DNA of 55,666 bases. Source: a bacterium. GTDB taxonomy: Bacteria; Bacillota; Clostridia; Oscillospirales; Oscillospiraceae. This document shows positions 6,278 through 38,712 of the stretch, in pieces (within the stretch, counting starts at the first letter, position 1; every line of letters begins with the position of its first letter). The position numbers were made by a program, and so were the translations under genes. The notes beneath the pieces are model-generated. The model was not told where the DNA came from. It searched no databases and worked only from the letters and a program-made list of their open reading frames with translations. Location of the stretch: contig CAVAPG010000001.1 of NCBI GenBank assembly GCA_963590435.1, positions 1 to 55,666 on the forward strand. The letters run 5' to 3'.

Positions 6278-7636
6278 ATGTCAGACACAATAGCCGCTGT
6301 ATCAACCGGATCGCAGATCTGCGCGATTGGCATCGTGCGCTTGTCGGGAGATGCCGCAGTAGATATCGCCGATAAGCTCTTTGAGCCGCTTCGCGGCAAG
6401 CCGGTCGCCGAGCGTGAGGACAGAAAGCTCATATACGGTAATCTTCATGACGAGCAGGGCAGAATACTGGATATATGCCTATGCACGATAAGCCGTGCAC
6501 CCAACAGCTACACCGGCGAAAACACGGCCGAATTTCAATGCCACGGCTCGCCCGTGGTTCTCAGGGCCGTCCTCGAAGCGGCGTTTGCGCTCGGTGCAAG
6601 GCAGGCCCTCGCAGGAGAATTCACCAAAAGAGCATTTCTCAACGGACGCATGGATCTGTCGAGTGCGGAGGCCGTTGCCGATATCATAGACGCCGAAACC
6701 GCGGAGGCCGCGCGCAACGCCGCAGGTCAGCTCGGCGGTGCGATTGCAAAGCGCATCGATGCCGTGTACGACACGCTCACGAATATAAGCTCGCATTATC
6801 ATGCCGTTCTTGACTATCCCGATGAGGACATCGAGGATTTCACCCTTGCTCAGTACGAAGCGGATATTGCTTCCTGCACACAGACGCTTGAGAAGCTTCG
6901 TGCAAGCTATGACAGCGGCAGAGTTATGCACTCGGGCGTTCCTGCGGCGATTATAGGCCGCCCCAACGCCGGAAAAAGCTCACTGCTCAACGCCGTTCTG
7001 GGCTATGACCGCGCCATAGTGACGGATATACCCGGCACGACACGCGACACCATTGAGGAAAAGCTGAAGCTCGGCGGCGTTCTGCTTCGCCTGACCGATA
7101 CCGCCGGCATACGTGAAACCGATGACGAGATTGAACGCCTCGGCGTTGACCGCTCGCGCCGCGCAATGGAGCAGGCCGAGCTTGTTCTTGCCGTGATTGA
7201 CGGAAGTCGTGAAATGAGCGATGAGGACAGAGAGCTTATAAAATGCGCTGAGGATGCGCCGCACGGAATCGTTGTAATCTCAAAGCACGACCTCGGCAGT
7301 GCATTTGAAGCTCCCGAAACGGCGCTTCCCGTTGTCGAGATAAGCTCCCTGACCGGTGAAGGGCTTGATAAGCTTGAGAACACGGTGCGTGCACTGTTTC
7401 CGATGCCGACTGTCCCTGCCGGCGAGATACTCACAAATGCCCGTCAGTTTGATGCCGTTTCGCGCGCGCTTGAGTCGATGAAGGCCGCAGCGGATGCCAT
7501 GCATGCCGGATGCACGCCCGATATAGTTCTGACAGAAACGGAAACCGCCATGTCGGCTCTCGGCGAGCTGACCGGAAAAACCGTCCGCGAGGAGATCACG
7601 AACCGCATCTTCTCCCGATTCTGCGTCGGAAAATAG
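6278..7636 (+). CDS. mnmE: tRNA uridine-5-carboxymethylaminomethyl modification GTPase
   Basis: 452 aa. DTIAAVST N-terminus, G1 GRPNAGKSSLLN, DTAGIR and the C-terminal FCVGK tail. Confidence 0.9.
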   Translation: MSDTIAAVSTGSQICAIGIVRLSGDAAVDIADKLFEPLRGKPVAEREDRKLIYGNLHDEQGRILDICLCTISRAPNSYTGENTAEFQCHGSPVVLRAVLEAAFALGARQALAGEFTKRAFLNGRMDLSSAEAVADIIDAETAEAARNAAGQLGGAIAKRIDAVYDTLTNISSHYHAVLDYPDEDIEDFTLAQYEADIASCTQTLEKLRASYDSGRVMHSGVPAAIIGRPNAGKSSLLNAVLGYDRAIVTDIPGTTRDTIEEKLKLGGVLLRLTDTAGIRETDDEIERLGVDRSRRAMEQAELVLAVIDGSREMSDEDRELIKCAEDAPHGIVVISKHDLGSAFEAPETALPVVEISSLTGEGLDKLENTVRALFPMPTVPAGEILTNARQFDAVSRALESMKAAADAMHAGCTPDIVLTETETAMSALGELTGKTVREEITNRIFSRFCVGK

Positions 7637-7687
7637 AAAAAATCCGCATTGTCTGTGAGCCCGATGTTAAGATGCCGGGCGGAGCGG

Positions 7688-7715
7688 TTGACATTTGGAA
7701 ATAAAACACTATAAT
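7688..7715 (+). promoter_or_regulatory. Sigma-70 promoter for the CBS-DHH pyrophosphatase gene
   Basis: TTGACA (7688-7693), 16-nt spacer, TATAAT (7710-7715). Confidence 0.6.
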
Positions 7716-7780
7716 TGTGTGGCGCTCGGAATGAGGGGCACAGGAGCTGTGCAGACCTCGGGCGCAGGGGGAATTTTCGG

Positions 7781-9391
7781 ATGAATGAGATTTTTGTTGT
7801 CGGCCACCGCAATCCGGACACGGATTCGATTGTTGCGGCCATGAGCTATGCGGCGCTCAGAAACGCGCTCGGCGACAGGGAATACACCGCCGCCTGTCTC
7901 GGACATGTAAGCGACGAGACGCAGCGCATGCTTGATAAATTCGGCTTTGAGCCGCCGCACCAGATAAACGACGTGCGCACGCAGGTGCGTGATCTGGATT
8001 TTGACACGCCGCCCGCTCTCAACTCCTCGGTTACAATGAACAGAGCATGGCACATGATGCGCGAGCAGAAGATTTCCGTCATACCTGTCATAGACGAGGA
8101 CGGCACGCTTTACGGCACGCTGTCGGCAGGCGACATAGCATCATACAGTCTTCTGACGATTATAGATCCGCATATTGACGATGTTCCGCTGTGCAATATT
8201 CTCAGTGTTCTCGAGGGCAAGGTCCTCAATGAGGACGCTGAGATGTTCGACTGCATTGCAGGCAATGTTGCCATCGCGCTTCCGCAAAGCTGCGAAACGC
8301 TGTTGTTTAATGACCCCGACAGTATTGTCCTGTGCGGCGAGCAGCCGGATATGGTTGAGCGCGCGCTCAATCTCGGCGTAAACTGCATTATTCTCTGCCA
8401 GACGGAGGCCAAAAAGCAGTGGCTTGACAAAGCCGGCAGGACCTGCATTATATCAACGCCCTTCGATGCGGCGCGTGTGGCAAAGCTTATATACCAGGCA
8501 ATCCCCATATCGCGTCCGTGCCATACGGAAGATACGATATGCTTCCATCTGAGTGATTACATAGACGATGTACGCGAAGAGGTTCTCAAAAGCCGCTACC
8601 GCTGCTATCCTGTTTTGGATGAAAACGAAAAAGTAGTCGGCACACTCTCGCGCTATCACCTGCTGCGTCCGCGCAGAAAGCGCGTGGTTCTGGTTGACCA
8701 CAACGAGAAAGCTCAGGCAGTTGCCGGTCTTGAACAGGCGGAGATACTTGAGATTATCGACCACCACAGGCTTGCCGACATTCAGACAGCACAGCCCATA
8801 CGCATGAGAAACGAGCCTGTCGGCAGCACCACGACAATAATCTGCGGCATGTATCAGGAGCACGGCGTGATGCCCTCACCCGCCATGGCCGGACTTATGA
8901 CAGCCGCCATTCTGTCGGACACGGTAATGTTCAAATCCCCGACCTGCACGAAGCGCGACATTGCCCTTGCCGAACGCATGGCACGCATTGCGAATGTATC
9001 TCTCGAAGCCCTGGGCAAGGAGCTTTTCTCCGGCTCATCGGACTCCAAGCCGGCATCGGAGCTTATAGGCTCGGACTTCAAGGAGTTCCACATCTCCGGT
9101 CAGATACTCGGTGTCGGACAGATTACAACGCTCGACTCGGCAAAAATGCTCGAGCGGCGCGAGGAGTTCCTCGATGAAATGCGCCGCATGAAAAGCAACC
9201 GCGGATACGACATTGTCATCCTCATGCTCACCGATGTTCTGCTTGAGGGCACACAGCTTTTATATATAGGAAGCGATGATACCATACGCCGCGCCTTTTC
9301 GGCAGAGCCGAAGGACAATATGCTCTTCCTCCCCGGAGTAATGAGCCGCAAGAAGCAGATAATCCCGATGCTGACCGCCCTGTGGGGCTGA
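7781..9391 (+). CDS. CBS-domain-containing DHH/DHHA2 family (manganese-dependent) inorganic pyrophosphatase
   Basis: VVGHRNPDTDS (DHH motif I), two CBS repeats, DHN/DHHR motifs and a DHHA2-type C-terminus. Start moved to ATG 7781 (MNEIFVVGH); the upstream extension lies within the promoter. Confidence 0.85.
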   Translation: MNEIFVVGHRNPDTDSIVAAMSYAALRNALGDREYTAACLGHVSDETQRMLDKFGFEPPHQINDVRTQVRDLDFDTPPALNSSVTMNRAWHMMREQKISVIPVIDEDGTLYGTLSAGDIASYSLLTIIDPHIDDVPLCNILSVLEGKVLNEDAEMFDCIAGNVAIALPQSCETLLFNDPDSIVLCGEQPDMVERALNLGVNCIILCQTEAKKQWLDKAGRTCIISTPFDAARVAKLIYQAIPISRPCHTEDTICFHLSDYIDDVREEVLKSRYRCYPVLDENEKVVGTLSRYHLLRPRRKRVVLVDHNEKAQAVAGLEQAEILEIIDHHRLADIQTAQPIRMRNEPVGSTTTIICGMYQEHGVMPSPAMAGLMTAAILSDTVMFKSPTCTKRDIALAERMARIANVSLEALGKELFSGSSDSKPASELIGSDFKEFHISGQILGVGQITTLDSAKMLERREEFLDEMRRMKSNRGYDIVILMLTDVLLEGTQLLYIGSDDTIRRAFSAEPKDNMLFLPGVMSRKKQIIPMLTALWG

Positions 9392-9453
9392 TTTGCCCCC
9401 ATCTTGAACAAAACGCGGCGGCGAGGGCGGCCAAATTTGTTCAAAAGCGGCAA

Positions 9454-9482
9454 TTGACAATATTAATAAGCCTGAGTATAAT
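9454..9482 (+). promoter_or_regulatory. Perfect consensus sigma-70 promoter of the aromatic amino-acid operon
   Basis: TTGACA (9454-9459), 17-nt spacer, TATAAT (9477-9482). It lies ~280 nt upstream of the pheA ATG. Confidence 0.75.
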
Positions 9483-9516
9483 TTACTCATCTTACAGGGA
9501 AAGCGAGGATACGGTC

Positions 9517-9675
9517 ATGACTGATTGCCGCAATAGCATGCGCAGCTGTTCCGTGTCTGAGTCTGCCCTCAGTGCATCTGTGTCCTTTAACGCAGTACGA
9601 TTTTATTCGTACTGCGATTTTTATTATTTTTGCTTTTCTCCCGAACGGCAAAGGACGACGGCAATGCACGGTTAA
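9517..9675 (+). CDS. Putative Phe/Tyr-rich leader peptide (52 aa) of the aromatic operon
   Basis: GAGGA (9505-9509) lies 7 nt before ATG 9517. The peptide MTDCRNSMRSCSVSESALSASVSFNAVRFYSYCDFYYFCFSPERQRTTAMHG has 5 Phe and 4 Tyr among residues 24-40, and this stretch overlaps terminator 1. The F/Y run may partly be a by-product of the U-tract. Confidence 0.4.
   Translation: MTDCRNSMRSCSVSESALSASVSFNAVRFYSYCDFYYFCFSPERQRTTAMHG
9591..9637 (+). terminator. Leader terminator/attenuator 1
   Basis: cgcagtacg-attttatt-cgtactgcg (9-bp perfect stem) followed by atttttattatttttgctttt. Confidence 0.7.
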
Positions 9676-9708
9676 GGCTGCGTGAGCGGCGTATATAAGT
9701 CATTGAAT

Positions 9709-9753
9709 GCGGTTTCTTTGCCAGAAAAGAAATCGCATATTTTTATTTTTATT
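9709..9753 (+). terminator. Leader terminator/attenuator 2
   Basis: gcggtttcttt-gccaga-aaagaaatcgc (11-bp stem with one G-U pair) followed by atatttttatttttatt. It ends 16 nt before the pheA ATG. Confidence 0.7.
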
Positions 9754-9768
9754 GAAAAAAACAGAGGT

Positions 9769-10881
9769 ATGAACATGAACGATCTTGAGACTTCCAGAAA
9801 CGAAATAAGCCGCATTGATGCCGAAATGGCAAAACTTTTTGAGCAGCGCATGAACGCCTGCGCCGCCGTTGCGGAATATAAAAAGCAGCACGGGCTCTCC
9901 GTCAAGGACTCGGCCCGCGAGCATGAGCTTATCGAGCGCAACCGTACGCTCATCGGCAGTGCCGATATCGAGAGCTATTATGTTCAGTTCCTCAGAAAGA
10001 CCATTGACCTGTCCTGCGAGTATCAATCGAAGCTACTCGAGGGAATGCGCGTGACCTACTGCGGCGTTGAGGGTGCGTTTGCTTACATGGCGGCAAAGCG
10101 CATGTTCCCGGGTGCTGAGCTTATCGCCTACTCCAACTTCGGCGATGCATACAAGGCCGTTGAGCGTGGCGAATACGACTGTGTGGTGCTTCCGCTTGAA
10201 AACAGCGCCGCCGGCGAGGTCGGAACGGTTATGGATCTTATATTCTCCGGCGACCTGTACATAAATCAGGTTATTGACCTGCCAATCGAGCACAATCTGC
10301 TCGGAGTTGAGTCGGCAACCCTCGACAGCGTGAAGACCGTAATCAGCCATCCGCAGGCACTCGACCAGTGCGAGGAATATATACGCAGTCACGGCTTCGA
10401 AACCGAGGCATTTTCAAACACCGCGCTCGCCGCGCAGTATGTCAAGGCGAAAAACGATCCGGCTCTTGCGGCAATAGCCTCGGACGAGACGAGCGAGATA
10501 TTCGGGCTGAGCGTGCTCGACAAGGTCGTAAACGATATAAAGACCAACACCACGCGTTTTGCGGCACTCTCGCGTGCGCAGAACAGACCCGTTGCGAAGT
10601 CAAACCGCGCCGAGGAGAATTTCATTCTCGTGTTCACAGTCAAAAACGAGGCAGGCTCTCTGGCACAGACGCTGAATATAATCGGCGCGCACGGCTTTAA
10701 CATGCGCAACCTGCGCTCGCGCCCGATGAAGGATCTGCAATGGAACTACTTCTTCTACATTGAGGCAGAGGGAAACATAAACAACGAAAACGGACAGGAT
10801 ATGCTCCGCGAGCTGTCGGCAGTGTGTGCAAAGCTCAAGCTCGTCGGAACCTACTACTCAAATCTTACGCTCGGAGAGTGA
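9769..10881 (+). CDS. pheA: Bifunctional chorismate mutase / prephenate dehydratase (P-protein) with a C-terminal ACT domain
   Basis: N-terminal CM_2 helix (ISRIDAEMAKLFEQRMN), PDT core (VTYCGVEGAFAY...TRF) and an ACT region (ILVFTVKNEAGSLAQTLNIIG). Start set at ATG 9769. Confidence 0.9.
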   Translation: MNMNDLETSRNEISRIDAEMAKLFEQRMNACAAVAEYKKQHGLSVKDSAREHELIERNRTLIGSADIESYYVQFLRKTIDLSCEYQSKLLEGMRVTYCGVEGAFAYMAAKRMFPGAELIAYSNFGDAYKAVERGEYDCVVLPLENSAAGEVGTVMDLIFSGDLYINQVIDLPIEHNLLGVESATLDSVKTVISHPQALDQCEEYIRSHGFETEAFSNTALAAQYVKAKNDPALAAIASDETSEIFGLSVLDKVVNDIKTNTTRFAALSRAQNRPVAKSNRAEENFILVFTVKNEAGSLAQTLNIIGAHGFNMRNLRSRPMKDLQWNYFFYIEAEGNINNENGQDMLRELSAVCAKLKLVGTYYSNLTLGE

Positions 10882-28680: not shown

Positions 28681-31260
28681 TTATTCGCAGAACAGCTCGC
28701 CGTCTCGGACATCGACCTTTATCACATGGTCTGCCGGCATATCTCCCGCGAGAATTGCGCGGGCAATGAGCGTTTCGACGGTGCTCTGGAGATATCTCTT
28801 GAGCGGACGCGCACCGAACACGGGGTCAAAGCCGCGGTCGATTATAAGCTGCTTTGCGCTGTCTGTTATCTCAAGGCCGAGGCCCTTGTCCTCAAGGCGC
28901 TGTCTGAGTGACGAGGTAAGGATGTCTATAATGCCGTCAAGCTCTGTCTTTGTCAGCGGCTTGAAGCAGATAATCTCATCGAGGCGGTTGAGGAATTCCG
29001 GTCTGAACTGCTGATGCAGCTGTGCCATGACCTGATCCTTCGCGCTCTGCTCAATCTCACCGTTATCGTTTATGCCATCGAGCAGGAACTGACTGCCGAG
29101 GTTGGAGGTCATGATGATAATGGTGTTTTTGAAGTCAACCGTGCGGCCCTGCGAGTCGGTCACGCGGCCGTCATCGAGAATCTGAAGCAGAATGTTGAAC
29201 ACATCGGGATGCGCCTTTTCGATCTCATCAAACAGCACTACGGAATAGGGCTTCCTGCGCACAGCCTCGGTAAGCTGACCGCCCTCGTCATAGCCGACGT
29301 ATCCCGGAGGTGCACCGATGAGTCTGGAAACCGAGAATTTTTCCATATACTCGGTCATATCGATTCTGACCATATTGTGCTCGTCATCAAACAGGCATCT
29401 TGCCAGAGCCTTTGCAAGCTCCGTCTTGCCGACGCCGGTCGGACCGAGGAACATGAACGAACCTATGGGCCTGTTGGGGTCTCCGATACCTGCACGCGAG
29501 CGCCATATTGCCTCGGTGACCTTCTGTACGGCCTCATCCTGACCGATAACCGATTTGTGCAGAACCTTATCGAGATTCAGAAGCTTTTCACGTTCACCCT
29601 CAAGCAGCTTGGACACGGGTATGCCCGTCCATTTTGCGACGATGCCGGCTATTTCCTCTTCGGTTACGGTATCGTGCACCATGCTGTCGCTCTTGCGCTC
29701 TTCGCTGTGCTTTTCGGCTTCCGCAAGCTGTTTTTCAAGGGCCGGCAGGTCGGAATATTTGAGCTTCGCAGCCGTTTCGTATTCGTAACGGAGCTGAGCC
29801 TTCTCAATATCGGCATTCATCTGCTCGATCTGAGCTTTGATTTTCTTTACATCGTCAACGCTGTTCTTTTCGGCCTCCCAGCGTGACTTGCGCTCGTTGA
29901 ATTCGTCTTTAAGATTTGCAAGCTCCTCCGTGAGCTTTGCAAGGCGGTCCTGCGAGAGCTTATCCGTCTCCTTCTTAAGGGCGGTTTCCTCAATCTCAAG
30001 CTGCATAATCTTGCGGCGCATATCGTCAAGCTCGGCCGGCATGGAGTCTATCTCCGTGCGGATAAGTGCGCATGCTTCATCGACAAGGTCGATTGCCTTA
30101 TCGGGCAGAAATCTGTCGGATATATATCTGTTTGAGAGCGTTGCCGCCGCGACGATTGCGTTATCGTGAATGCGCACGCCGTGATATACCTCATAGCGTT
30201 CCTTAAGTCCGCGCAGGATTGATATCGTGTCCTCAACGGTCGGTTCATCGACCTGAACGGGCTGGAATCTACGTTCGAGTGCCGCATCTTTTTCGATATA
30301 TTTTCTGTACTCATCAAGCGTCGTTGCACCAATGCAGTGCAATTCGCCGCGTGCAAGCATAGGCTTAAGCAGGTTGCCGGCATCCATGCTGCCTTCGGTT
30401 TTGCCAGCTCCGACTATCGTGTGCAGCTCATCTATGAACAGTATAATCTGTCCGTCGGACTGCTTTATCTCTTCAAGAACGGCCTTCAGGCGTTCCTCAA
30501 ACTCGCCGCGGTACTTTGCGCCGGCTATCAGTGCGCCCATATCGAGAGAGAAGATTGTCTTATCCTTCAGGCCCTCCGGCACATCGCCGCGGACTATACG
30601 CTGGGCCAGGCCCTCTGCAATTGCCGTTTTGCCGACGCCGGGTTCGCCGATAAGCACCGGGTTATTCTTCGTTTTTCTTGAAAGAATGCGGACGACATTT
30701 CTTATCTCCGTATCACGGCCTATGACAGGGTCAAGCTTATTGCTTTTTGCTCTCTCGACAAGGTCTGTGCCGTATTTCTTCAGTGCGTCATAGCTGCTTT
30801 CGGGGTTATCGCCCGTAACCGGACCTTTTTTGACCTTTGACAGCTCTTCGCTGAACTTTGCCTTTGTTATGCCGTGGTCTTCGAAAATGCGCTTTATCGC
30901 AGGCGTCGGGGAGGCGAAAATGCCGATCATGATATGCTCAACCGAGAGGTATTCGTCATTCATGCTCTTTGCGGATTTCTCTGCGGCATTTATGACGCGG
31001 TCTGCCTCGCGCGAAAGATATATATCATAATCGCCCGAAACCTTCGGCATTGCGTCTATTGCAGTATCGAGTTCAGAGAGGACCGCGTTGCAGTCGACTC
31101 CCATACGCTCGAACAGTGACGGAATAAGGCCTCCGTCCTGATCGACAAGGGCATACAGCAGATGCTCCGGAGTTATGTATTGATTGTTATTTTCCATGGC
31201 CATTGACTTGGCCGTCTGGATCATTTCAAGTGTCTTTTGAGTAAAATTCTGTGCGTTCAT
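28681..31260 (-). CDS. clpB: ATP-dependent chaperone/disaggregase ClpB
   Basis: 859 aa. Clp_N repeats, two AAA+ modules ([18 protein letters not shown]) and a long coiled-coil middle domain. Confidence 0.95.
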
Positions 31261-31299
31261 AAAAACACCTTCTTTTCAAATTCGGTAAATTTCAGGGAA

Positions 31300-31950
31300 T
31301 TAAATTAATATATTCGCTCTTCTCAGCTGGGAGAAGTAGCATGCCTCTATGTCGCGGGCGCTGAAGCGTCCGTTCAGATAGCCTTTCATCATCGTGTCAA
31401 ACAGTTTTATGTATTCCGAGAGCGTCTTGGCAAGCTCATCGGATGTGCAGTCACGCGACGGCAATGAAATGGAACGGATAAACTTGCCTTCGTACAGGGC
31501 GTACTTCGGAGGCTCCTGCTCCATAACCGGACGCAGATGCGCATCCTCTATGCTCTTCCATATGCGGAAGAACTCAGTCATTGAACGGATAAGTGCCGCC
31601 GACTGCGTGCGGAATATAACCGTCAGCTCGCCCAGGCAGTCACTGTCGCCTCTGTAAAGCTCAACCTCGTATTTTACCGTCGGTCGGTATTTATATTCCA
31701 GCGATGATTTGAGCGACATCGTCAATGCGTTCGGCGAGACAAACGGAACAAGCTCGCGCGATGATGTCATGAGCTGCTCAATTGCCGAAAAGACATCGTT
31801 TATGCGCCGCTCGGGCGTGACGAGATTCACATGCTCGGCAAGAATCTGATTTATAAGGTTTGAGCGGTTAGTCCCGAGTCTGTGGGCAAGTCTGTCCACC
31901 TCCGCGACAACCTCTTCGGAAAGCATAAGGCTGTAAAGCGTCTTTTTCAT
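31300..31950 (-). CDS. Ribbon-helix-helix (CopG/Arc-like) N-terminal domain protein with an uncharacterised ~160-aa C-terminal domain
   Basis: YSLMLSEEVVAEVDRLAHRLGTNRSNLINQILAEHV is an RHH pattern. The stop is only 39 nt before the clpB ATG, with no terminator between them. Confidence 0.6.
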   Translation of the reverse strand: MKKTLYSLMLSEEVVAEVDRLAHRLGTNRSNLINQILAEHVNLVTPERRINDVFSAIEQLMTSSRELVPFVSPNALTMSLKSSLEYKYRPTVKYEVELYRGDSDCLGELTVIFRTQSAALIRSMTEFFRIWKSIEDAHLRPVMEQEPPKYALYEGKFIRSISLPSRDCTSDELAKTLSEYIKLFDTMMKGYLNGRFSARDIEACYFSQLRRANILI

Positions 31951-32025
31951 GGTTGAATCTCTCTTTCAAAATTTATAGCTTATGGGTCGTGCGCAACCGC
32001 CGACCCCAATTTTCCCTGTGAGCTT

Positions 32026-32054
32026 ATATTAATCCGAACATGATAATTTGTCAA
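32026..32054 (-). promoter_or_regulatory. Sigma-70 promoter of the RHH-clpB unit
   Basis: On the minus strand: TTGACA (32054-32049), 17-nt spacer, TAATAT (32031-32026). Confidence 0.6.
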
Positions 32055-32103
32055 TAGTTTTATATAAATTTTTTTACGAATTATATATTGGAGGCATTTT
32101 AAA

Positions 32104-32124
32104 GGCAGAGCATACGGCTCTGCC
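32104..32124. terminator. Terminator hairpin after the YlmH-like gene
   Basis: ggcagagc-atacg-gctctgcc with short T/A runs on both sides. Confidence 0.6.
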
Positions 32125-32133
32125 TGTTTTAGA

Positions 32134-32883
32134 TTATTTATATATCTCCGCTTCGACAAAAAGCCGTCCCTTTCGGCTTACGCCGCCGGATGACGAGATC
32201 GTTCCCTTGCCGTGACCGCGCAGAGATATGACATCTCCCGGGGACACTGCGGCATCGTTTTTCAGGCACTGGGCGTAATTCAGGCTCGCCGCGCCCTCGG
32301 ATATATATGAGGATGCCGCCGTGCGCGACAGGCCGAACATCCCGGCAAGAACCGCATCAAAGCGCATGCTCTTGACGGAAAATGACACGCGTTTTACCTT
32401 TCGCTCCGGCTGCCGGAGCGATGACAGCTCCGCTTTTTCGAGTTTGACTCCGTATCTGCCGACCTTATCGAGTCCGTCCGCGACATGACGCTCGACAGAG
32501 TTCATGAGGAATATAACAGCCTCATCGCCGTCAAGCCATATATCTCCGAGCCACTCACGCTTTATGCCCAGGCCGAGTATGGCACCCATGTAGTCGCGGT
32601 GAGACGGCGTGCCGAAATGCGCCTTGGAGCACAGTGCGCTTATATATTCCGAGGCATCGAAGCTCTCGGCCTCCATATAAAACGGCAGGAAAAATGCCGC
32701 ACGGCGCTCGCACCCGTCCGCGCCGCCTGTCAGCAGCATATTGCAGTCCGCCGCCGTCTGCGCCCATTTTTCAAGCGCAAACTGCTCTGCCGGAGTCAGA
32801 AACGCCGTATGCGTAACAGCTGATGTTCTCTCGCATCGGCGGCACAGATCCTCCGCACGGCGGATAAGCTCATCGTTTTCCAT
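32134..32883 (-). CDS. YlmH-like RNA-binding S4-domain protein
   Basis: 249 aa, collinear with B. subtilis YlmH motifs (FLTPAEQ, GG.D.CERRAAFF.P, HRDYMGAILGLGIKREWLGDI, MRFDAVL, GDVISLRGHGK). Confidence 0.8.
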   Translation of the reverse strand: MENDELIRRAEDLCRRCERTSAVTHTAFLTPAEQFALEKWAQTAADCNMLLTGGADGCERRAAFFLPFYMEAESFDASEYISALCSKAHFGTPSHRDYMGAILGLGIKREWLGDIWLDGDEAVIFLMNSVERHVADGLDKVGRYGVKLEKAELSSLRQPERKVKRVSFSVKSMRFDAVLAGMFGLSRTAASSYISEGAASLNYAQCLKNDAAVSPGDVISLRGHGKGTISSSGGVSRKGRLFVEAEIYK

Positions 32884-35356
32884 CTACATACTCCATGATC
32901 TTTTTCATAACCCCGTCAATTTCATCTGAGAACTCCTTCACGGACATTCTCAGCACACCCGAGCGCATTGCCGACAGGCGAATGAGCGAATCGTTGGTGA
33001 CAACCTTGACAGAGTAGTTTTTGCCGATATCGTTTGCAAGCTTTTCGATGTACATATCGGCGGTTTCGTTTTCCTTTGTGTAAACCGTTCTGATGCCGTG
33101 CGTTTCACGCTCACCGACATTTCCCGCAACCCGATAGCCGTCGAAAACAAGCACAAGCTCACAGTCACGCATTGCCCTGTAGCTTCGGAGCACATCGGAC
33201 AGATGCTCGCGTGCAAGCGATAGCGAGGACGCGGCAAGGTTTTTATATTCCTCCGTTCCGAATATGAAATTATACCCGTCCACGATGACATATTCGCGCT
33301 TTGACGGCGCAACGGCATATTCCTGCGTCTGTTGGGTCTGCGTCTTCGTGTACATCCTGCGGCGCACCGGTCCGAACTCGCGCTCCATTATCGCCTCGAG
33401 CTCCTTATCGTCAATGTTGAAAAATCTCGGGCGCTGCACAGCTTCGACCTGACTGCCGCCGATTGTCGGATTCAAGTGCATATACTTTTCGGTTTCGTTC
33501 CATTTGACGACCGTTCCCGCTCCGTGCGAGCAGAAAACGGAATCGGGCGTGTTTTCAACATCCGCCTCGGGGTTATAGGCAATCTCCTCTATGACCCGCT
33601 TTTCGTTGTGGCAGGGATAGTATCCGGCCGCGCGGCAGACGAGTCTGCCCTTGCCCGATGTATATGACGCAAGAGTTTCGGCATAGCCGTTCATTTCCGA
33701 AACAGGAGCAATGCCTGTGATTACACTGCTGCCCTCGGTCTCGAATTTTCCGCTCATGGCGCGGATATCCGAAATTGCCCTGCCTATCTGCTCGGCAGGC
33801 AGCTCAAGTCGGAACTCATACCACGGCTCAAGCAGTACGCTTTTTGCCTTCATAAGTCCCTGACGCACGGCGCGGTAGACTGCCTCACGGAAATCGCCGC
33901 CCTCGGTGTGCTTTACATGTGCGCGTCCGGCAATCAGGCTTATCTTAACATCCGTAAGCGGAGAGCCCGTCAGAACGCCCAAATGAGTTTTTTCTGCAAG
34001 ATTGGTCATAATAAGGCTCTGCCAGTTTCGGTCAAGATCATCTGTCGGGCAGCGGCTCTCAAAGCTCAGCCCCGAGCCGCGCTCGGCAGGCTCTATAAGC
34101 AGATGCACCTCGGCATAGTGCCGCAGAGGCTCGAAATGCCCGACACCATGCACCGGCTCGGCTATGGTTTCCTTATAGGCAATGCCGCCCGACGTTAGCG
34201 TGACGGCAAGCTCGAATCTTTCGCGTATAAGCTCCGTCAGGACCTCGGTCTGCACCCTGCCCATGATGCGCACGCTTATCTCGCGCAGGCGGTCATTCCA
34301 TTCTATGTGAAGCTGAGGATCTTCGTCCTCAAGCTGTTTGAGCTGTCTGTATGCAACGAGGGCATCAACACCGTCGGGAAGCTCTATCTTATAGCTCATC
34401 ACGGCCTCGGTTTCGGGGCTTATATCATCACGCTCAAAGCCGAGCCCCTGTCCGGCATACGTTCCGTCAAGTCCCTGCACGGCGACGATGCTTCCGGCCT
34501 GCGCCTCCTGCACGGTTTCATAATTGGCACCGGAGTAAATGCGAAGCTCGGTTGCCGTCTGCCCGTTAATATTATCGCGGTTGTGCAGTGCTCCGCCGGT
34601 TATTTTCATGCAGCTTAAGCGTCTGCCGCGGGCATCGCGCATTATCTTATAAACCCTTGCGCCGAATGAATCGGGATATTCGGGGCTCACAGTGTATTTT
34701 TCGATAAATTCAATAAGCTCAGACACGCCGTCAAGCTTAAGTCCCGAGCCGAAGAGAACCGGGAAAAGCTTTCTTTCCTTTATAAGTCGCGAGATATCGC
34801 TGTCGGAAATATCCTCACCGCCGGCAAACTTCTCCAGAAGCTGCTCATCGCACATGGCGATGCTCTCTCGCGTTTCCTGCGATGCATCCGAAAGGTCAAA
34901 GCAGTTTTCCGAAAGGCGCTTTCGCAGGTCGTCGATTATCCGCTCCCTGTCGCTGCCGCTGAGATCCATTTTGGTTGCGAATATAATAACCGGCACATTG
35001 TGCCGCTGTATAAGACGCCACAGCGTTTCCGTATGCGCCTGAACGCCGTCGGTTCCGGATATTACGAGGATAGCATAATCTATTACGCCGAGCGTGCGCT
35101 CGGTTTCCGCGGTCAGATCCGCGTGCCCCGGCGTGTCAAGAAGGCACAGCTCCATATTATCCGTACGGAGCTGCGCCTGTTTCGAAAATACTGTTATCCC
35201 GCGTTCACGCTCAATCTGATGCGTATCGAGCGCTGTGTTGCGGTGGTCCACCCTGCCGAGCTTTCTTATGCTGCCGCAGGTATACAGCATTGCTTCGGAC
35301 AGAGTGGTTTTTCCGGCATCGACATGCGCAAGGATGCCGAGAACAAGCTTTTTCAT
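32870..35356 (-). CDS. TetM/EF-G-like translational GTPase fused to a C-terminal Rae1/YacP-type NYN endoribonuclease domain
   Basis: 828 aa. G1 AHVDAGKTT, G3 DTPGH, G4 TKMD and EF-G domain IV/V-like segments run to about residue 640. A linker follows (..TKTQTQQTQ..). Residues ~687-828 (nt 32873-33298) carry VDGYN, LVFDG, YTKENETADMYIEKLA and VVTND, matching YacP/Rae1. Confidence 0.85.
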   Translation of the reverse strand: MKKLVLGILAHVDAGKTTLSEAMLYTCGSIRKLGRVDHRNTALDTHQIERERGITVFSKQAQLRTDNMELCLLDTPGHADLTAETERTLGVIDYAILVISGTDGVQAHTETLWRLIQRHNVPVIIFATKMDLSGSDRERIIDDLRKRLSENCFDLSDASQETRESIAMCDEQLLEKFAGGEDISDSDISRLIKERKLFPVLFGSGLKLDGVSELIEFIEKYTVSPEYPDSFGARVYKIMRDARGRRLSCMKITGGALHNRDNINGQTATELRIYSGANYETVQEAQAGSIVAVQGLDGTYAGQGLGFERDDISPETEAVMSYKIELPDGVDALVAYRQLKQLEDEDPQLHIEWNDRLREISVRIMGRVQTEVLTELIRERFELAVTLTSGGIAYKETIAEPVHGVGHFEPLRHYAEVHLLIEPAERGSGLSFESRCPTDDLDRNWQSLIMTNLAEKTHLGVLTGSPLTDVKISLIAGRAHVKHTEGGDFREAVYRAVRQGLMKAKSVLLEPWYEFRLELPAEQIGRAISDIRAMSGKFETEGSSVITGIAPVSEMNGYAETLASYTSGKGRLVCRAAGYYPCHNEKRVIEEIAYNPEADVENTPDSVFCSHGAGTVVKWNETEKYMHLNPTIGGSQVEAVQRPRFFNIDDKELEAIMEREFGPVRRRMYTKTQTQQTQEYAVAPSKREYVIVDGYNFIFGTEEYKNLAASSLSLAREHLSDVLRSYRAMRDCELVLVFDGYRVAGNVGERETHGIRTVYTKENETADMYIEKLANDIGKNYSVKVVTNDSLIRLSAMRSGVLRMSVKEFSDEIDGVMKKIMEYVDGKR

Positions 35357-36216
35357 AGTCTTATAAGTTCGTATTCGCGGCTTCCGACACCGATCTCCGC
35401 CGCGGCTTCAACGGTGTGGATGCCGTTTCTTGATTCAATGCGTTCTATGAGGTCGCCCTTGTCGGGATCATCGCTTGCATACACGAGATCAACGCAGGCC
35501 TGATCGAGTGCAACGGGATCAAGAGAGGATAAAATACCGATATCGCCTATCTTCGGATCTGCCGCGACGGCACAGCAGTCGCAGTCAACGGACATGTTCT
35601 TCATTATGTTCACGAATGCCATGTTTCCGCCGAAGTGATCCACAATGCTCTTTGCGGCATCTGCCATGCATTCAAGGAAGCTGTCATGATCAGAATGCCA
35701 GAAGTTATTGACATCCTTTACGCCGTGGATATATTTCTTGCCGTAGCTTGATGCAAGACCGATTGATATATTCTTCAGTGCACCGCCGAAGCCGCCCATC
35801 GGGTGGCCCTTAAAATGCGAGAGAACGAGCATGGAATCATACTCCGGAAGGGTTTTTCCGACATAGTTTACATCCAGGTGCATGCCGCCGACAACGGGAA
35901 TTGTCATATCGCCGTCTGCGTCCATGATATCGACATCCGCAATCTCGATCCAGCCGTGCAGCTGCATGGTTTTCCTGTGGTGCTCGGTGGTATCTCTTCC
36001 GCCGTCATATGCCGTGTTGCATTCGACTATCGTTCCGCCGACATGGCTGACAGCCGGCTTCATAAAGCTCGGACGCAGAAAATTCTGATTGCCCGGCTCT
36101 CCGCTGTGAAGCTTCACCGCGACATTCCCTCCGAGGGCAACGCCGAGAGCCTCGTATGCCTTTATAACATTTTCGGGACTTATCTCATTTATGAAATACA
36201 CCTTTGATTTTTCCAC
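35353..36216 (-). CDS. DUF362-domain protein
   Basis: 287 aa. KVYF....VKLHSGEPGN..F..P...ECNTAY pattern and a CDCC cluster. GTG start with an AAAGGA RBS. 4-nt overlap with the GTPase gene. Confidence 0.7.
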   Translation of the reverse strand: MEKSKVYFINEISPENVIKAYEALGVALGGNVAVKLHSGEPGNQNFLRPSFMKPAVSHVGGTIVECNTAYDGGRDTTEHHRKTMQLHGWIEIADVDIMDADGDMTIPVVGGMHLDVNYVGKTLPEYDSMLVLSHFKGHPMGGFGGALKNISIGLASSYGKKYIHGVKDVNNFWHSDHDSFLECMADAAKSIVDHFGGNMAFVNIMKNMSVDCDCCAVAADPKIGDIGILSSLDPVALDQACVDLVYASDDPDKGDLIERIESRNGIHTVEAAAEIGVGSREYELIRL

Positions 36217-36246
36217 GGTACATCATCCTTTCTGTTTCTTGCAGTT

Positions 36247-36275
36247 ATTATATAATATTATTCCCCTCTGTTCAA
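36247..36275 (-). promoter_or_regulatory. Sigma-70 promoter of the DUF362 / GTPase-NYN / YlmH-like operon
   Basis: On the minus strand: TTGAAC (36275-36270), 17-nt spacer, TATAAT (36252-36247). Confidence 0.6.
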
Positions 36276-36329
36276 TATTCGCTATTCCAATTTTATTGAA
36301 AATGTAATAGAATAGCCGCAGGTGATTTA

Positions 36330-37286
36330 ATGAAAGCTGTGCTTATTGTTTTAATAGTTGTCTGTGTCGTACTTGCGATATTATACGCGGTTGGGCTGTG
36401 CTTTGTGCGGATACTCATCCGAAGGCAGGATAATTTCCCGACGCCGGAAACGGGTGCGGAATCGTCCGCGCTTCTGGAGCCGACGGGCAAAGCCCTCTGG
36501 GCGTACAACATTCCGCATTTTCAGCTGTTTCGTGAGCTGCCGTTTGAGGAAATTCAGTGCCGGTCCGACGACGGGCTTACTCTTCGCGCCGATATGCTTC
36601 GCGGCAGCGGCACGGGCGTAACGCTTATCTTCTTCCACGGATATAAATCCGAACCGGTCTACGATTTTGCGGCGATGTATGATTTTTATAAATCCCTCGG
36701 CTGCAATCTTATATATGTCCATATGCGCGCCCACTGCAAAAGCGACGGGACCTACATAGGCTTCGGTGCTCTGGACAGATATGATGTCGTCAAATGGACG
36801 GACACGGTCGCCGGATTTTTCCCGAATGATGATATATATCTGCACGGCATGTCCATGGGGGCGGCAAGCATTCTGCAGAGCATGGATCTTGAGCTTAATA
36901 AAAATGTGCGTGGCGTTATCGCCGACTGCGGATACTCAGACCTCAACACGGTTTTCCGCAATCTTGTCGGGACGCTGTTCCACCTGCCGACCATGTTCGT
37001 GGACGTTTTCGAATATGTCAATCTACTCAAAGCAGGCTATGGCTTCAGGGAGGCGAGCTCCGTGCGAAGCGTGAGCGCAGCCGAGATACCGCTTTTATAT
37101 ATCTGCGGAGATTCCGACCGTTATGTTCCTAAGGATATGGCGCTTGAGATATTTAACGCCTGCAAAAGTCCGAAGAAGCTGCTGCTTGTACCCGGCGTGG
37201 GGCATGCGGCGTGCTATATGTGCGCAAAGGAGCAATATGAGGCTTGCGTGACGGAGCTTATAGATAAAACTCGGAGGAATAAATAA
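36330..37286 (+). CDS. Alpha/beta hydrolase with an N-terminal membrane anchor
   Basis: N-terminal TM helix, nucleophile elbow HGMSMGA and a C-terminal GHA motif. Confidence 0.75.
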   Translation: MKAVLIVLIVVCVVLAILYAVGLCFVRILIRRQDNFPTPETGAESSALLEPTGKALWAYNIPHFQLFRELPFEEIQCRSDDGLTLRADMLRGSGTGVTLIFFHGYKSEPVYDFAAMYDFYKSLGCNLIYVHMRAHCKSDGTYIGFGALDRYDVVKWTDTVAGFFPNDDIYLHGMSMGAASILQSMDLELNKNVRGVIADCGYSDLNTVFRNLVGTLFHLPTMFVDVFEYVNLLKAGYGFREASSVRSVSAAEIPLLYICGDSDRYVPKDMALEIFNACKSPKKLLLVPGVGHAACYMCAKEQYEACVTELIDKTRRNK

Positions 37287-37287
37287 A

Positions 37288-38712
37288 ATGGGCAAGAAAA
37301 AGGGCATCGGCGCGCTCAACTGGGCGCTGCTGCTGGTCATCGGATTTTCCGCGCAGATAGCATGGGTTATCGAAAACAACTGGTTTGCAAACTTCCTGTA
37401 TTCCGACTTCGGCGCACAGCTCGGCGTTGTGACGGCAATGACAATATGCTCGGCAACGGCCACAACATTTTCAGCACTTTTCTTCGGAACTCTTTCCGAC
37501 CGCATGGGATCACGCAAGAAGCTCATAACGTGGGGCTCGATTCTGTGGGGAATTTTCACGATTGCCTTCGGTCTGACGCACTATCTGCGCGACAGCATTT
37601 ATAACAATGTCATGCTCGTCGGCGTTACAATCGTTGCGGCTGATACTATTATGAGCTTTTTCGGTTCAATGGCAAACGATGCGGGCTATAATGCCTGGTA
37701 TGCGGATATGATGGATGACTCAAACTCCGGTCAGATAGGTGCGGTCGCCGCAACGCTGCCCGTTATCGGCACACTGGTCGGCACACTGGTCGGCGGAATG
37801 TTCGTGAGCGGTCTTGCGACGCAGGAAAATCCGCAGGCGGGCTATATAATATTTTTCTCCGTTGCCGGCGGCATCACGGTTCTTGTCGGCATAGCATCGT
37901 TTTTTCTGCTCAAGGACTCTCCGGAGCTCAAGCCCGTCAAGGACGGCGGATTCTGGCATCAGTTTGCCTCGACATTTAATTTCAAACGCTTCGTTTCAAA
38001 CCGCGAGCTTGCGCTTGTATTTTTAACCCTGTGCATATTCTTCATCGGATACAACTGCTATTTTATCCACATCATGAACTGGATGAACTACACCCTCGGC
38101 TTTAACGATCCGAGCCTTATCCTCGGTATTCCGCTGCTGATAGCCGTCGCCGTATCCGTTCCGTTTGTGAAGGTCATAAACAACAGAAAAGTCCCTGCCG
38201 TTGCGGCATTTGCGACGATTCTGAGCATTCTCGGCTGCCTGTTTGTATATTTCGTCGTCGGCAGAATGCAGAGCTCATTCGACACGGAAAACGCATTGAA
38301 CATTGCGGCAAACTGGCCCTGCTTTGTCGGCATAATTTTAGTCGGCGTGGGCTATGTCGTTTTCATGCAGTCAATGACCGTTTGGATGAAGCGTCTGTAT
38401 CCCGAGGAGCATCGCGGGCAATTTGAGGGTATAAGAATCATGTTCTTTGTGTTCTTCCCCATGATTGCCGGGCCTCTGCTGGCTGACCCTATCTGCCGTG
38501 CCTTCGGCGAGAAGGTCTATCAGGTTGTGGACAACGGCAGTCTCATTTTCGTAACCGCCGAGCGGGCAGGCGAAATGGGATATGATATAAGCAGTATAGC
38601 CGAGGGCTATCTGCCGGTAAACGAGCTGTTCATTGCCGCCGCCGTTGTTACGGCGCTCGCGCTTATTCCGATGAGCAAGGCGGCAAAAATGTATAAAGAA
38701 AGGAACAAATGA
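37288..38712 (+). CDS. MFS-type (GPH-like) transporter
   Basis: 474 aa with ~12 predicted TM helices and the loop motif GTLSDRMGSRKK. Confidence 0.75.
   Translation: MGKKKGIGALNWALLLVIGFSAQIAWVIENNWFANFLYSDFGAQLGVVTAMTICSATATTFSALFFGTLSDRMGSRKKLITWGSILWGIFTIAFGLTHYLRDSIYNNVMLVGVTIVAADTIMSFFGSMANDAGYNAWYADMMDDSNSGQIGAVAATLPVIGTLVGTLVGGMFVSGLATQENPQAGYIIFFSVAGGITVLVGIASFFLLKDSPELKPVKDGGFWHQFASTFNFKRFVSNRELALVFLTLCIFFIGYNCYFIHIMNWMNYTLGFNDPSLILGIPLLIAVAVSVPFVKVINNRKVPAVAAFATILSILGCLFVYFVVGRMQSSFDTENALNIAANWPCFVGIILVGVGYVVFMQSMTVWMKRLYPEEHRGQFEGIRIMFFVFFPMIAGPLLADPICRAFGEKVYQVVDNGSLIFVTAERAGEMGYDISSIAEGYLPVNELFIAAAVVTALALIPMSKAAKMYKERNK

Follow-up and report, generated by a model that had tools for sequence, protein, structure and literature searches.

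A GTPase–NYN nuclease fusion encoded next to ylmH in Clostridia: a conserved gene pair with a candidate role on stalled ribosomes

In Bacillus subtilis, stalled ribosomes are a target of the NYN-domain endoribonuclease Rae1 (YacP), which cleaves their mRNA 12 nt upstream of the A-site codon (PMC12407103) and also channels collided ribosomes into trans-translation (PMC13622287). YlmH, a factor of ribosome-associated quality control, binds the 50S subunit together with P-site tRNA (PMC11317155). Structural work on the way in which free Rae1 locates and engages stalled or collided ribosomes is under way, according to a 2025 paper in Nucleic Acids Research. Tet-subfamily proteins with a YacP-like NYN domain have been described in ten Clostridiales species (Atkinson 2015, PMC4342817), and TetM-NYN_YacP fusions, of unclear role, in Clostridia (Matelska et al. 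2017, PMC5499597), so that the fusion architecture itself is already known from these two surveys. Here we analyse a gene for such a fusion in a 55,666-nt stretch of DNA from a member of the Oscillospiraceae (assembly GCA_963590435.1, contig CAVAPG010000001.1; hereafter the window). According to the list of open reading frames (ORFs) of the window, the gene is the second of three consecutive minus-strand ORFs with overlapping reading frames, a DUF362 gene coming first and a gene of the YlmH family last. We read the core of this locus as an ancestral two-gene operon (promoter, fusion gene, ylmH, terminator) for handling stalled ribosomes, into which the DUF362 gene was inserted later, and we give this reading a probability of roughly one half. 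Unlike the fusion itself, the conserved operon that it forms with ylmH seems not to have been described before: in the papers searched, we found none linking YlmH with an NYN fusion, or mRNA-cleavage rescue with quality control via such an operon. The window's exact fusion protein is not on record, and close homologues were used for look-ups.

The fusion protein, YlmH and their described relatives

The fusion gene (32870..35356, minus strand) encodes a protein of 828 residues. A translational GTPase G domain occupies residues 1-222 (34691..35356; GTP_EFTU, E=3e-48) and is followed by the EF-G-like domains II, III, IV and V at residues 232-586 (33599..34663; Pfam EF-G_D2, EFG_III, EFG_IV and EFG_C), by a linker of conserved sequence with no Pfam match at residues 587-689 (33290..33598), and by a Rae1/YacP-type NYN endoribonuclease domain at residues 690-828 (32873..33289; NYN_YacP matched at 690-822, E=3e-35). 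In an alignment of 39 fusion sequences at 62-89% identity, the GTPase motifs AHVDAGKT (the P-loop), RGIT, DTPGH with its catalytic His, and TKMD are all invariant; the protein thus has the G1-G4 motifs and the catalytic His after DxxG that define the translational GTPase superfamily. The AlphaFold2 model made from this alignment has a mean predicted local distance difference test (pLDDT) score of 78.3, with a confident EF-G-like body at residues 1-590, where the G domain mostly exceeds 80, and a moderately confident NYN domain.

The closest described relatives of the GTPase body are EF-G and the ribosomal protection proteins Tet(M) and Tet(O), and the fusion shares features with both. A Foldseek search with the fusion model returned EF-G structures as top matches (E=1e-51), with TetM at rank 47, and the catalytic His of DTPGH and a His at the tip of domain IV loop II are likewise features in common with EF-G. 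With Tet(M) and Tet(O), on the other hand, it has in common the five-domain EF-G-like layout with a reduced G' insertion. At the sequence level, TetO and TetM align over residues 1-582 in a single stretch, whereas EF-G matches in two segments, one on either side of a missing stretch of ~47 aa that makes up most of the G' insertion. For domains IV-V, in contrast, EF-G is the better match, at 76 bits as opposed to 46-51 bits for TetO/TetM. The domain IV loops are specific to the fusion family and invariant within it, reading GHFEPLRHYAEVH and AGRAHxKHTEGGDFR. The YSPVST loop of Tet(M) presumably corresponds to GRAHVKHTEGGD in the fusion. The best NCBIfam model is tet_protect (NF012153, E=7e-114); its cutoff is 775 bits, and the fusion reaches 381.3. 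Scores are 269 bits for the Tet(M)/(W)/(O)/(S) model (cutoff 1100) and 217 bits for the Tet(M) model (cutoff 1420); the fusion also falls far below the cutoffs of the Otr(A) and Tet(Q) models. The EF-G equivalog TIGR00484 gives 268 bits against 659. With scores below both the Tet and the EF-G cutoffs and mixed alignments, the fusion is, judged by sequence comparison, a distinct branch of the EF-G/Tet group and a bona fide member of neither. It differs from Tet(M) and Tet(O), moreover, in carrying a linker and a nuclease, and in having a chromosomal gene, with relatives in at least 597 species.

The linker of ~100 aa is modelled with low confidence, pLDDT being below 50 at residues 603-614, 632-654 and 661-686, and region 560-692 matched no Pfam family at E up to 10. 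Its sequence is nevertheless conserved, with the motifs PDSVFCSHGAG and DDKELEAIMEREFGP; C582, C609 and H611 do not vary at all and H583 hardly varies, and these Cys and His residues could possibly form a metal site. Among the 150 best matches listed for the linker, the region sits at about residue 600 of proteins of ~830-1000 aa, its first half ends a few proteins of ~650 aa, and many short matches look like fragments. In this exhaustive search of representatives, the listed matches that were long enough to judge were either fusions of ~830-1000 aa or GTPases of ~650 aa, and none of them showed a C-terminal extension of YlmH length. In three proteins of ~650-700 aa (P0361, P0384 and P0352), only the first half of the linker (CHN...PDSVFCSHGAG) was matched, at the extreme C-terminus. 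Such proteins suggest a related GTPase subfamily lacking the NYN domain; if so, the Cys/His motif would belong to a C-terminal extension of the GTPase.

The C-terminal 139 residues of the fusion match NYN_YacP (PF05991) at 122 bits against a cutoff of 24.6, covering model positions 1-136 of 166, and align to residues 3-136 of B. subtilis Rae1 (5MQ8/5MQ9; E=8e-17). By this alignment, D693 is the equivalent of Rae1 D7 and D767 that of D81, the two residues changed in the published catalytic mutant D7N D81N (PMC10351889), and both are invariant in the 39 sequences. Judged by its sequence, then, the fusion carries a Rae1-type NYN domain that has kept both catalytic residues, and strong constraint acts on the active sites of nuclease and GTPase alike, as the invariant motifs indicate. 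The context of the domain differs from that of Rae1, a free protein of ~170 aa with a C-terminal tail that is encoded in a gltX-cysS-mrnC-yacO-yacP operon: the predicted nuclease described here is fused to the C-terminus of a GTPase and its gene lies beside ylmH.

The third ORF (32134..32883, minus strand) encodes a YlmH-family protein of 249 aa. YlmH_RBD was found above threshold (E=3e-13, 50.5 bits against a cutoff of 23), and similarity to B. subtilis YlmH, an RqcP-like S4 factor (8S1P/8S1U), is full-length, as expected of the family, with residues 31-251 of the 275-residue chain V of 8S1P aligned (E=2e-25). Pfam S4 was not reported for the window's protein at E≤0.01; its relatives carry PF21278, PF17774 and, weakly, PF01479. 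Close homologues are named YlmH/Sll1252 family in their source records, and the score of 92.5 bits against the cutoff of 201.55 of the cyanobacterial Sll1252 equivalog TIGR03069 indicates a related family rather than a cyanobacterial orthologue. The location of ylmH varies among taxa (PMC11317155). Unlike B. subtilis ylmH, the window's gene lies outside the ylm/dcw cluster (sepF-divIVA) and is translationally coupled to the GTPase-nuclease gene; indeed, neither sepF nor divIVA was found near the YlmH-like gene in any locus annotated with Pfam, the fusion gene lying upstream instead.

A recurrent gene pair and its boundaries

We scanned one genome per species with two family-specific peptides and found that at least 597 species-level genomes encode a relative of the fusion. 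The best 80 loci, all of which were inspected, hold full-length fusions at 48-89% identity and span Oscillospiraceae, Ruminococcaceae, Acutalibacteraceae, Lachnospiraceae, Faecalibacterium, Intestinimonas and others. Enough downstream sequence was present in 72 of them to look for ylmH with a profile built from the neighbours. In 17 loci ylmH lies directly downstream on the same strand (one further case is cut by a contig end), and in 11 of these 17 the two genes overlap; elsewhere within ±6 kb of the fusion, the profile detected no YlmH in any of the 72 loci. Clustering of all ORFs within ±3.5 kb across the 80 loci gave no recurrent partner besides YlmH. Twenty other downstream neighbours, typed with Pfam, were heterogeneous and included a sigma factor, CBS proteins, TrmO, a TadA-like deaminase, GreA, AhpC and MerR.

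The surroundings of the pair change with distance from the window. At 88, 77 and 72% fusion identity the order is conserved as abhydrolase/MFS genes (divergent), DUF362, fusion, YlmH, a gene for a 216-aa protein, and ClpB. At 65% (locus L084), the same abhydrolase/MFS genes lie upstream, DUF362 is missing, and YlmH follows with the same 14-nt overlap before RNase Y. Starting from YlmH, we looked up four homologues at 60-63% identity; in each case a fusion gene directly precedes ylmH, the two overlap by 1-11 nt, and the flank is a different one: hydrogenase, two-component system and ABC transporter genes; radical SAM and WYL genes; PGM and NUDIX genes; and ABC permease and FAD oxidase genes. 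One fusion at 62% identity stands alone. Altogether the pair was found in six distinct flanking contexts, that of the window and five others outside the window's genus, and having been kept in unrelated flanks it has thus survived complete reshuffling of its surroundings. The first-pass annotation had considered that the YlmH-like gene might lie beside the fusion by chance; its recurrence in 17 of 72 species loci and in five other flanks indicates that it does not.

The signals that bound the operon are conserved as well. A sigma-70-type promoter, TTGAAC (36275-36270) followed after 17 nt by TATAAT (36252-36247), lies upstream on the minus strand (36247..36275). It was found by consensus scan, and in an alignment of both intergenic regions with those of relatives at 88, 86, 77, 72 and 65% fusion identity, neither the TATAAT hexamer nor the -35-like TTGA varied in the relatives at 88, 77, 72 and 65%, including L084. 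The first junction, between the DUF362 and fusion genes, is an overlap of exactly 4 nt, ATGA, at which no good Shine-Dalgarno sequence for the fusion gene was seen in the window; the second, between the fusion gene and ylmH, is an overlap of exactly 14 nt, ATGGAAAACGATGA, with GGAG 9 nt upstream of the ylmH start. Nine nucleotides past the ylmH stop there is a minus-strand stem-loop of 9 bp with a 5-nt loop (32103..32125), with a folding energy of -16.1 kcal/mol and z=-5.35 relative to shuffled sequences. Compensatory substitutions preserve its stem in four relatives (L081, L088, L089 and L001), the pairing CAGAG/CTCTG becoming CGGAG/CTCCG in one and AGGAG/CTCCT in another. This hairpin is likely the operon terminator, although its minus-strand U-tract is weak (UUUAAAAUG) and the scanner called the site on the plus strand, where the T-tail is better. 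A second, strongly conserved AT-rich promoter block (TTGACA-17-TAATAT at 32054-32026) directly follows the hairpin and serves the next gene, which supports a 3' end of the unit at the hairpin. With a common promoter, coupled ORFs, a terminator and conservation of these signals, the genes form a predicted single operon. The promoter, the two overlaps and the hairpin had all been noted in the first-pass annotation, and each was recovered here, as was the extent of the unit, which the conserved promoter, hairpin and following promoter delimit as described there. An Rfam search of 31200-36400 matched no RNA family.

The promoter scan of 31000-37500 was noisy overall, returning 16 sites where 7.0±2.8 were expected from shuffled sequences. 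Several of these sites lie inside the fusion coding sequence, for example at 34035-34008 and 33414-33387 on the minus strand, and internal promoters of this kind may serve ylmH.

Could the adjacency of fusion and ylmH be mere phylogenetic inertia, a housekeeping ylmH having landed there once in an ancestor of part of the Oscillospirales with no functional coupling to follow? All else around the pair has been reshuffled, into six unrelated flanks, and no other neighbour occurs in more than 12 loci at any consistent position. Even where protein identity has dropped to ~50-60%, the two genes remain contiguous, and in most cases the stop codon of one overlaps the start codon of the other; promoter and terminator are conserved as one unit; furthermore, both families have published roles on stalled ribosomes (PMC12407103, PMC11317155). 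These points make inertia rather unlikely. It is nevertheless the most serious of the competing explanations: it would agree with a pairing seen in only 17 of 72 loci and in none of a large sister branch, with the ordinary full-length architecture of the YlmH-like protein, which aligns end to end with B. subtilis YlmH, and with our having seen no second ylmH within 55 kb of this genome or within ~±6-10 kb in others.

A number of further observations weigh against our reading of the pair as an ancestral operon for handling stalled ribosomes. Among the species inspected that bear a fusion, about 75% lack ylmH within ±6 kb; an adjacent ylmH is thus no requirement of the fusion. The whole Ruminococcus/Faecalibacterium/Lachnospiraceae/Intestinimonas branch is without the pairing, and the link may therefore be clade-specific or loose. 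A neighbour-joining tree places all paired loci within a single half of the family, where unpaired loci are mixed in with them; the other half has none. This tree is rough (MAFFT at a faster setting, identity distances) and cannot separate one ancestral pairing followed by several losses from repeated gains. The ylmH gene may be a dedicated paralogue or the genome's only copy. In the fusion itself, the G4 motif is TKMD and not NKxD, with T in place of N, and loop I of domain IV carries a 4-residue deletion relative to EF-G, so that A-site contacts are not to be assumed. Finally, the NYN domain ends at about Rae1 residue 141 and is without the last ~30 positions of both the Pfam model and B. 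subtilis Rae1.

Some loci call for separate mention. In L087, a metagenome contig, the fusion gene that precedes an intact ylmH is split into several short ORFs, with an ORF on the opposite strand lying between them (7419-10008), and is either a pseudogene or an assembly error. A full-length fusion was also seen in L071, on a contig (CAVEPP010000094.1) binned as Alloprevotella (Bacteroidota); all other matches being from Clostridia, a binning error is likely here rather than horizontal transfer. In another subclade, TrmO is encoded directly downstream of the fusion (L043 7398-8072 and L064 7385-8062, in a cluster of four loci), and one YlmH-paired locus has TrmO 4 kb away on the opposite strand (L092 9245-9952). 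The TrmO neighbours are a second, weak hint of a tRNA or translation context.

A possible role on stalled ribosomes

If the pair handles stalled ribosomes, as we suppose, the following course of events can be envisaged. The GTPase part of the fusion (residues 1-586), in its GTP form, would dock at the factor-binding site of a ribosome that has a free A site or is stalled or collided, with domain IV pointing to the decoding region. The conserved, low-confidence linker of ~100 residues would let the NYN domain reach mRNA at or near the docked ribosome; being long, conserved and, by the model, probably flexible, it would suit a nuclease on a tether, reaching out to mRNA from a factor docked at the GTPase centre. 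There the NYN domain would cut the mRNA, much like free Rae1 in B. subtilis, whose cuts fall at the trailing edge of a stalled ribosome. Cleavage, possibly with GTP-driven remodelling or splitting, would yield non-stop ribosomes for tmRNA, or 50S subunits with peptidyl-tRNA, and co-translated YlmH would bind those 50S subunits and support RqcH-type tailing and clearance. In the window's genus, the DUF362 gene would ride on the same transcript. The domain make-up, the intact GTPase and nuclease motifs, the EF-G fold, the conserved pair with its signals and the late arrival of DUF362 are established directly; that the fusion binds ribosomes, which mRNA it would target, in what order the events would happen and that it cooperates with YlmH are what we infer.

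A bolder form of this proposal is that fusion and YlmH make up an unrecognised rescue pathway, in which a GTP-driven, EF-G-like factor senses stalled or collided ribosomes, a Rae1-type cut of the mRNA follows and the resulting 50S-peptidyl-tRNA passes directly to YlmH/RqcH. We offer it tentatively and consider it unlikely as it stands. The logic predicted for the fusion, in which ribosome docking goes together with mRNA cleavage and hand-over to tmRNA or quality control, would resemble that of E. coli SmrB, of yeast Cue2 with Hbs1-Dom34, and of the splitter MutS2 of B. subtilis (PMC12407103, PMC13622287). The likeness would be one of logic only: these are unrelated families, none of which fuses a translational GTPase to a nuclease. 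If the rescue pathway of fusion and YlmH did exist, it would physically join a 'cut and trans-translate' and a 'split and tail' route that are separate in B. subtilis, and the natural fusion would show where Rae1-type nucleases work on the ribosome. A natural fusion to an EF-G-like GTPase is in any case a 'Rosetta stone' hint that the nuclease works from the factor-binding side of the ribosome, the conserved operon with ylmH would tie mRNA-cleavage rescue to ribosome-associated quality control, and the fusion offers a tractable protein for structural study. The joint ribosome-directed function that the first-pass annotation proposed for fusion and YlmH gains from the recurrent pairing and from a Rae1-type NYN domain with intact catalytic residues; a part for DUF362 is not supported.

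A different translation-related function would be maturation of the ribosome or of tRNAs, with the GTPase delivering the NYN domain to trim rRNA or tRNA precursors and YlmH serving as an assembly factor. NYN_YacP was first predicted to act in rRNA and tRNA maturation from its operon in B. subtilis (PMC5499597, PMC4342817), and a role of YlmH in ribosome biogenesis has been left open (PMC11317155). However, the experiments on Rae1 show translation-dependent mRNA cleavage and not rRNA processing (PMC12407103, PMC13622287, PMC10351889), and a domain IV of the EF-G type targets the decoding site of assembled ribosomes. Among the neighbourhoods, one locus has a TadA-like deaminase and the cluster of four loci has TrmO downstream of the fusion (L043 and L064 being confirmed with Pfam), but such tRNA-related neighbours are few and not common to the YlmH clade. 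We regard a maturation module as improbable.

Still more improbable, in our opinion, is that the fusion is a tetracycline-resistance ribosomal protection protein, its nuclease an accessory and ylmH irrelevant. Such proteins were placed in the Tet subfamily by Atkinson 2015, who speculated on resistance (PMC4342817), and one source record names a homologue 'TetM/TetW/TetO/TetS family'. The similarities behind these assignments are real, namely tet_protect as best NCBIfam match, the unbroken TetO/TetM alignment and the loss of most of the EF-G G' insertion as in Tet proteins; yet the tet_protect score is under half the cutoff, the Tet(M), Tet(Q) and Otr(A) models fare no better, and domains IV-V, which bear the drug-dislodging loops in Tet proteins, score closer to EF-G. 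The gene is chromosomal with varied and unrelated neighbours, no recurrent mobile-element gene flanking the fusion in at least 80 species, and invariant nuclease catalytic residues would be unexpected in a passive accessory domain. The distinction has practical consequences. Fusion genes are common in Clostridia of the human and animal gut, and some records label them tetracycline-resistance genes; showing that the fusion is not a tetracycline-resistance protein would remove false positives from resistome surveys.

The DUF362 gene and neighbouring features

The first gene of the unit (35353..36216, minus strand) encodes a 287-aa DUF362 protein (PF04015, E=1e-45) from a GTG start preceded by a Shine-Dalgarno-like AAGGATGA. 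The first-pass annotation had expected that the fusion might keep company with both of its neighbours; this held for YlmH and failed for DUF362, which adjoins the fusion in one of the 80 species loci, that of a near relative. In our look-ups, the loci with DUF362 upstream of the fusion are confined to L001 and those of P0012, P0050 and P0059, where fusion identity is at least 72%. It is missing from L084, where the same promoter directly precedes the fusion gene, and from all other loci, and in L088 and L089 it is separated from the fusion and does not overlap it. Being limited to close relatives and sitting between a conserved promoter and the fusion gene, DUF362 is best explained as a late insertion, and from its distribution it looks like a recent lineage-specific add-on to an existing operon rather than a conserved functional partner. 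A functional unit of three genes, as implied by the first-pass annotation, is not supported: DUF362 occurs only in the genus-level clade with at least 72% fusion identity, the promoter abutting the fusion directly at 65%.

That all three genes form one system, with DUF362 giving a metal or redox input to the GTPase-nuclease, is barely credible to us: the 4-nt ATGA overlap in front of a fusion gene without a good Shine-Dalgarno sequence, the retention of DUF362 across the genus-level clade and its better conservation there would agree with it, but DUF362 is missing from 79 of the 80 species loci and from every look-up in which fusion identity fell below 72%, it stands apart from the fusion in L088 and L089, and the conserved promoter predates its insertion. 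DUF362 as a conserved Fe-S partner was likewise rejected, given its narrow distribution and a promoter older than the insertion.

Within the genus-level clade, DUF362 is more conserved than the fusion, at 83-86% against 72-77%; the values are 86% against 72% on a contig of 63,944 bp and 85% against 77% on one of 257,514 bp. A search for DUF362 homologues returned this same clade only, at 82-100% identity, and therefore carries no information on other contexts of the gene. In L084 (9890-10012), only ~20 nt separate the conserved TATAAT from the annotated start codon of the fusion gene, with no obvious Shine-Dalgarno sequence, and the ancestral fusion mRNA may therefore have had a very short leader.

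Downstream of the terminator hairpin, the next gene encodes the 216-aa protein, which has a ribbon-helix-helix N-terminus (RHH_1, E=1e-4), and is followed by clpB (28681-31260). A PADLOC search gave no match to anti-phage defence at E≤0.001 for the DUF362 protein, the fusion, YlmH or this ribbon-helix-helix protein. In the 5' untranslated region of the 216-aa gene (31300-32054, minus strand), we observed a stem-loop, GGGGTCG...CGACCC at ~31984-32007, which is retained in three of four relatives. Together, the 216-aa gene and clpB may constitute a stress-regulated regulator-clpB unit.

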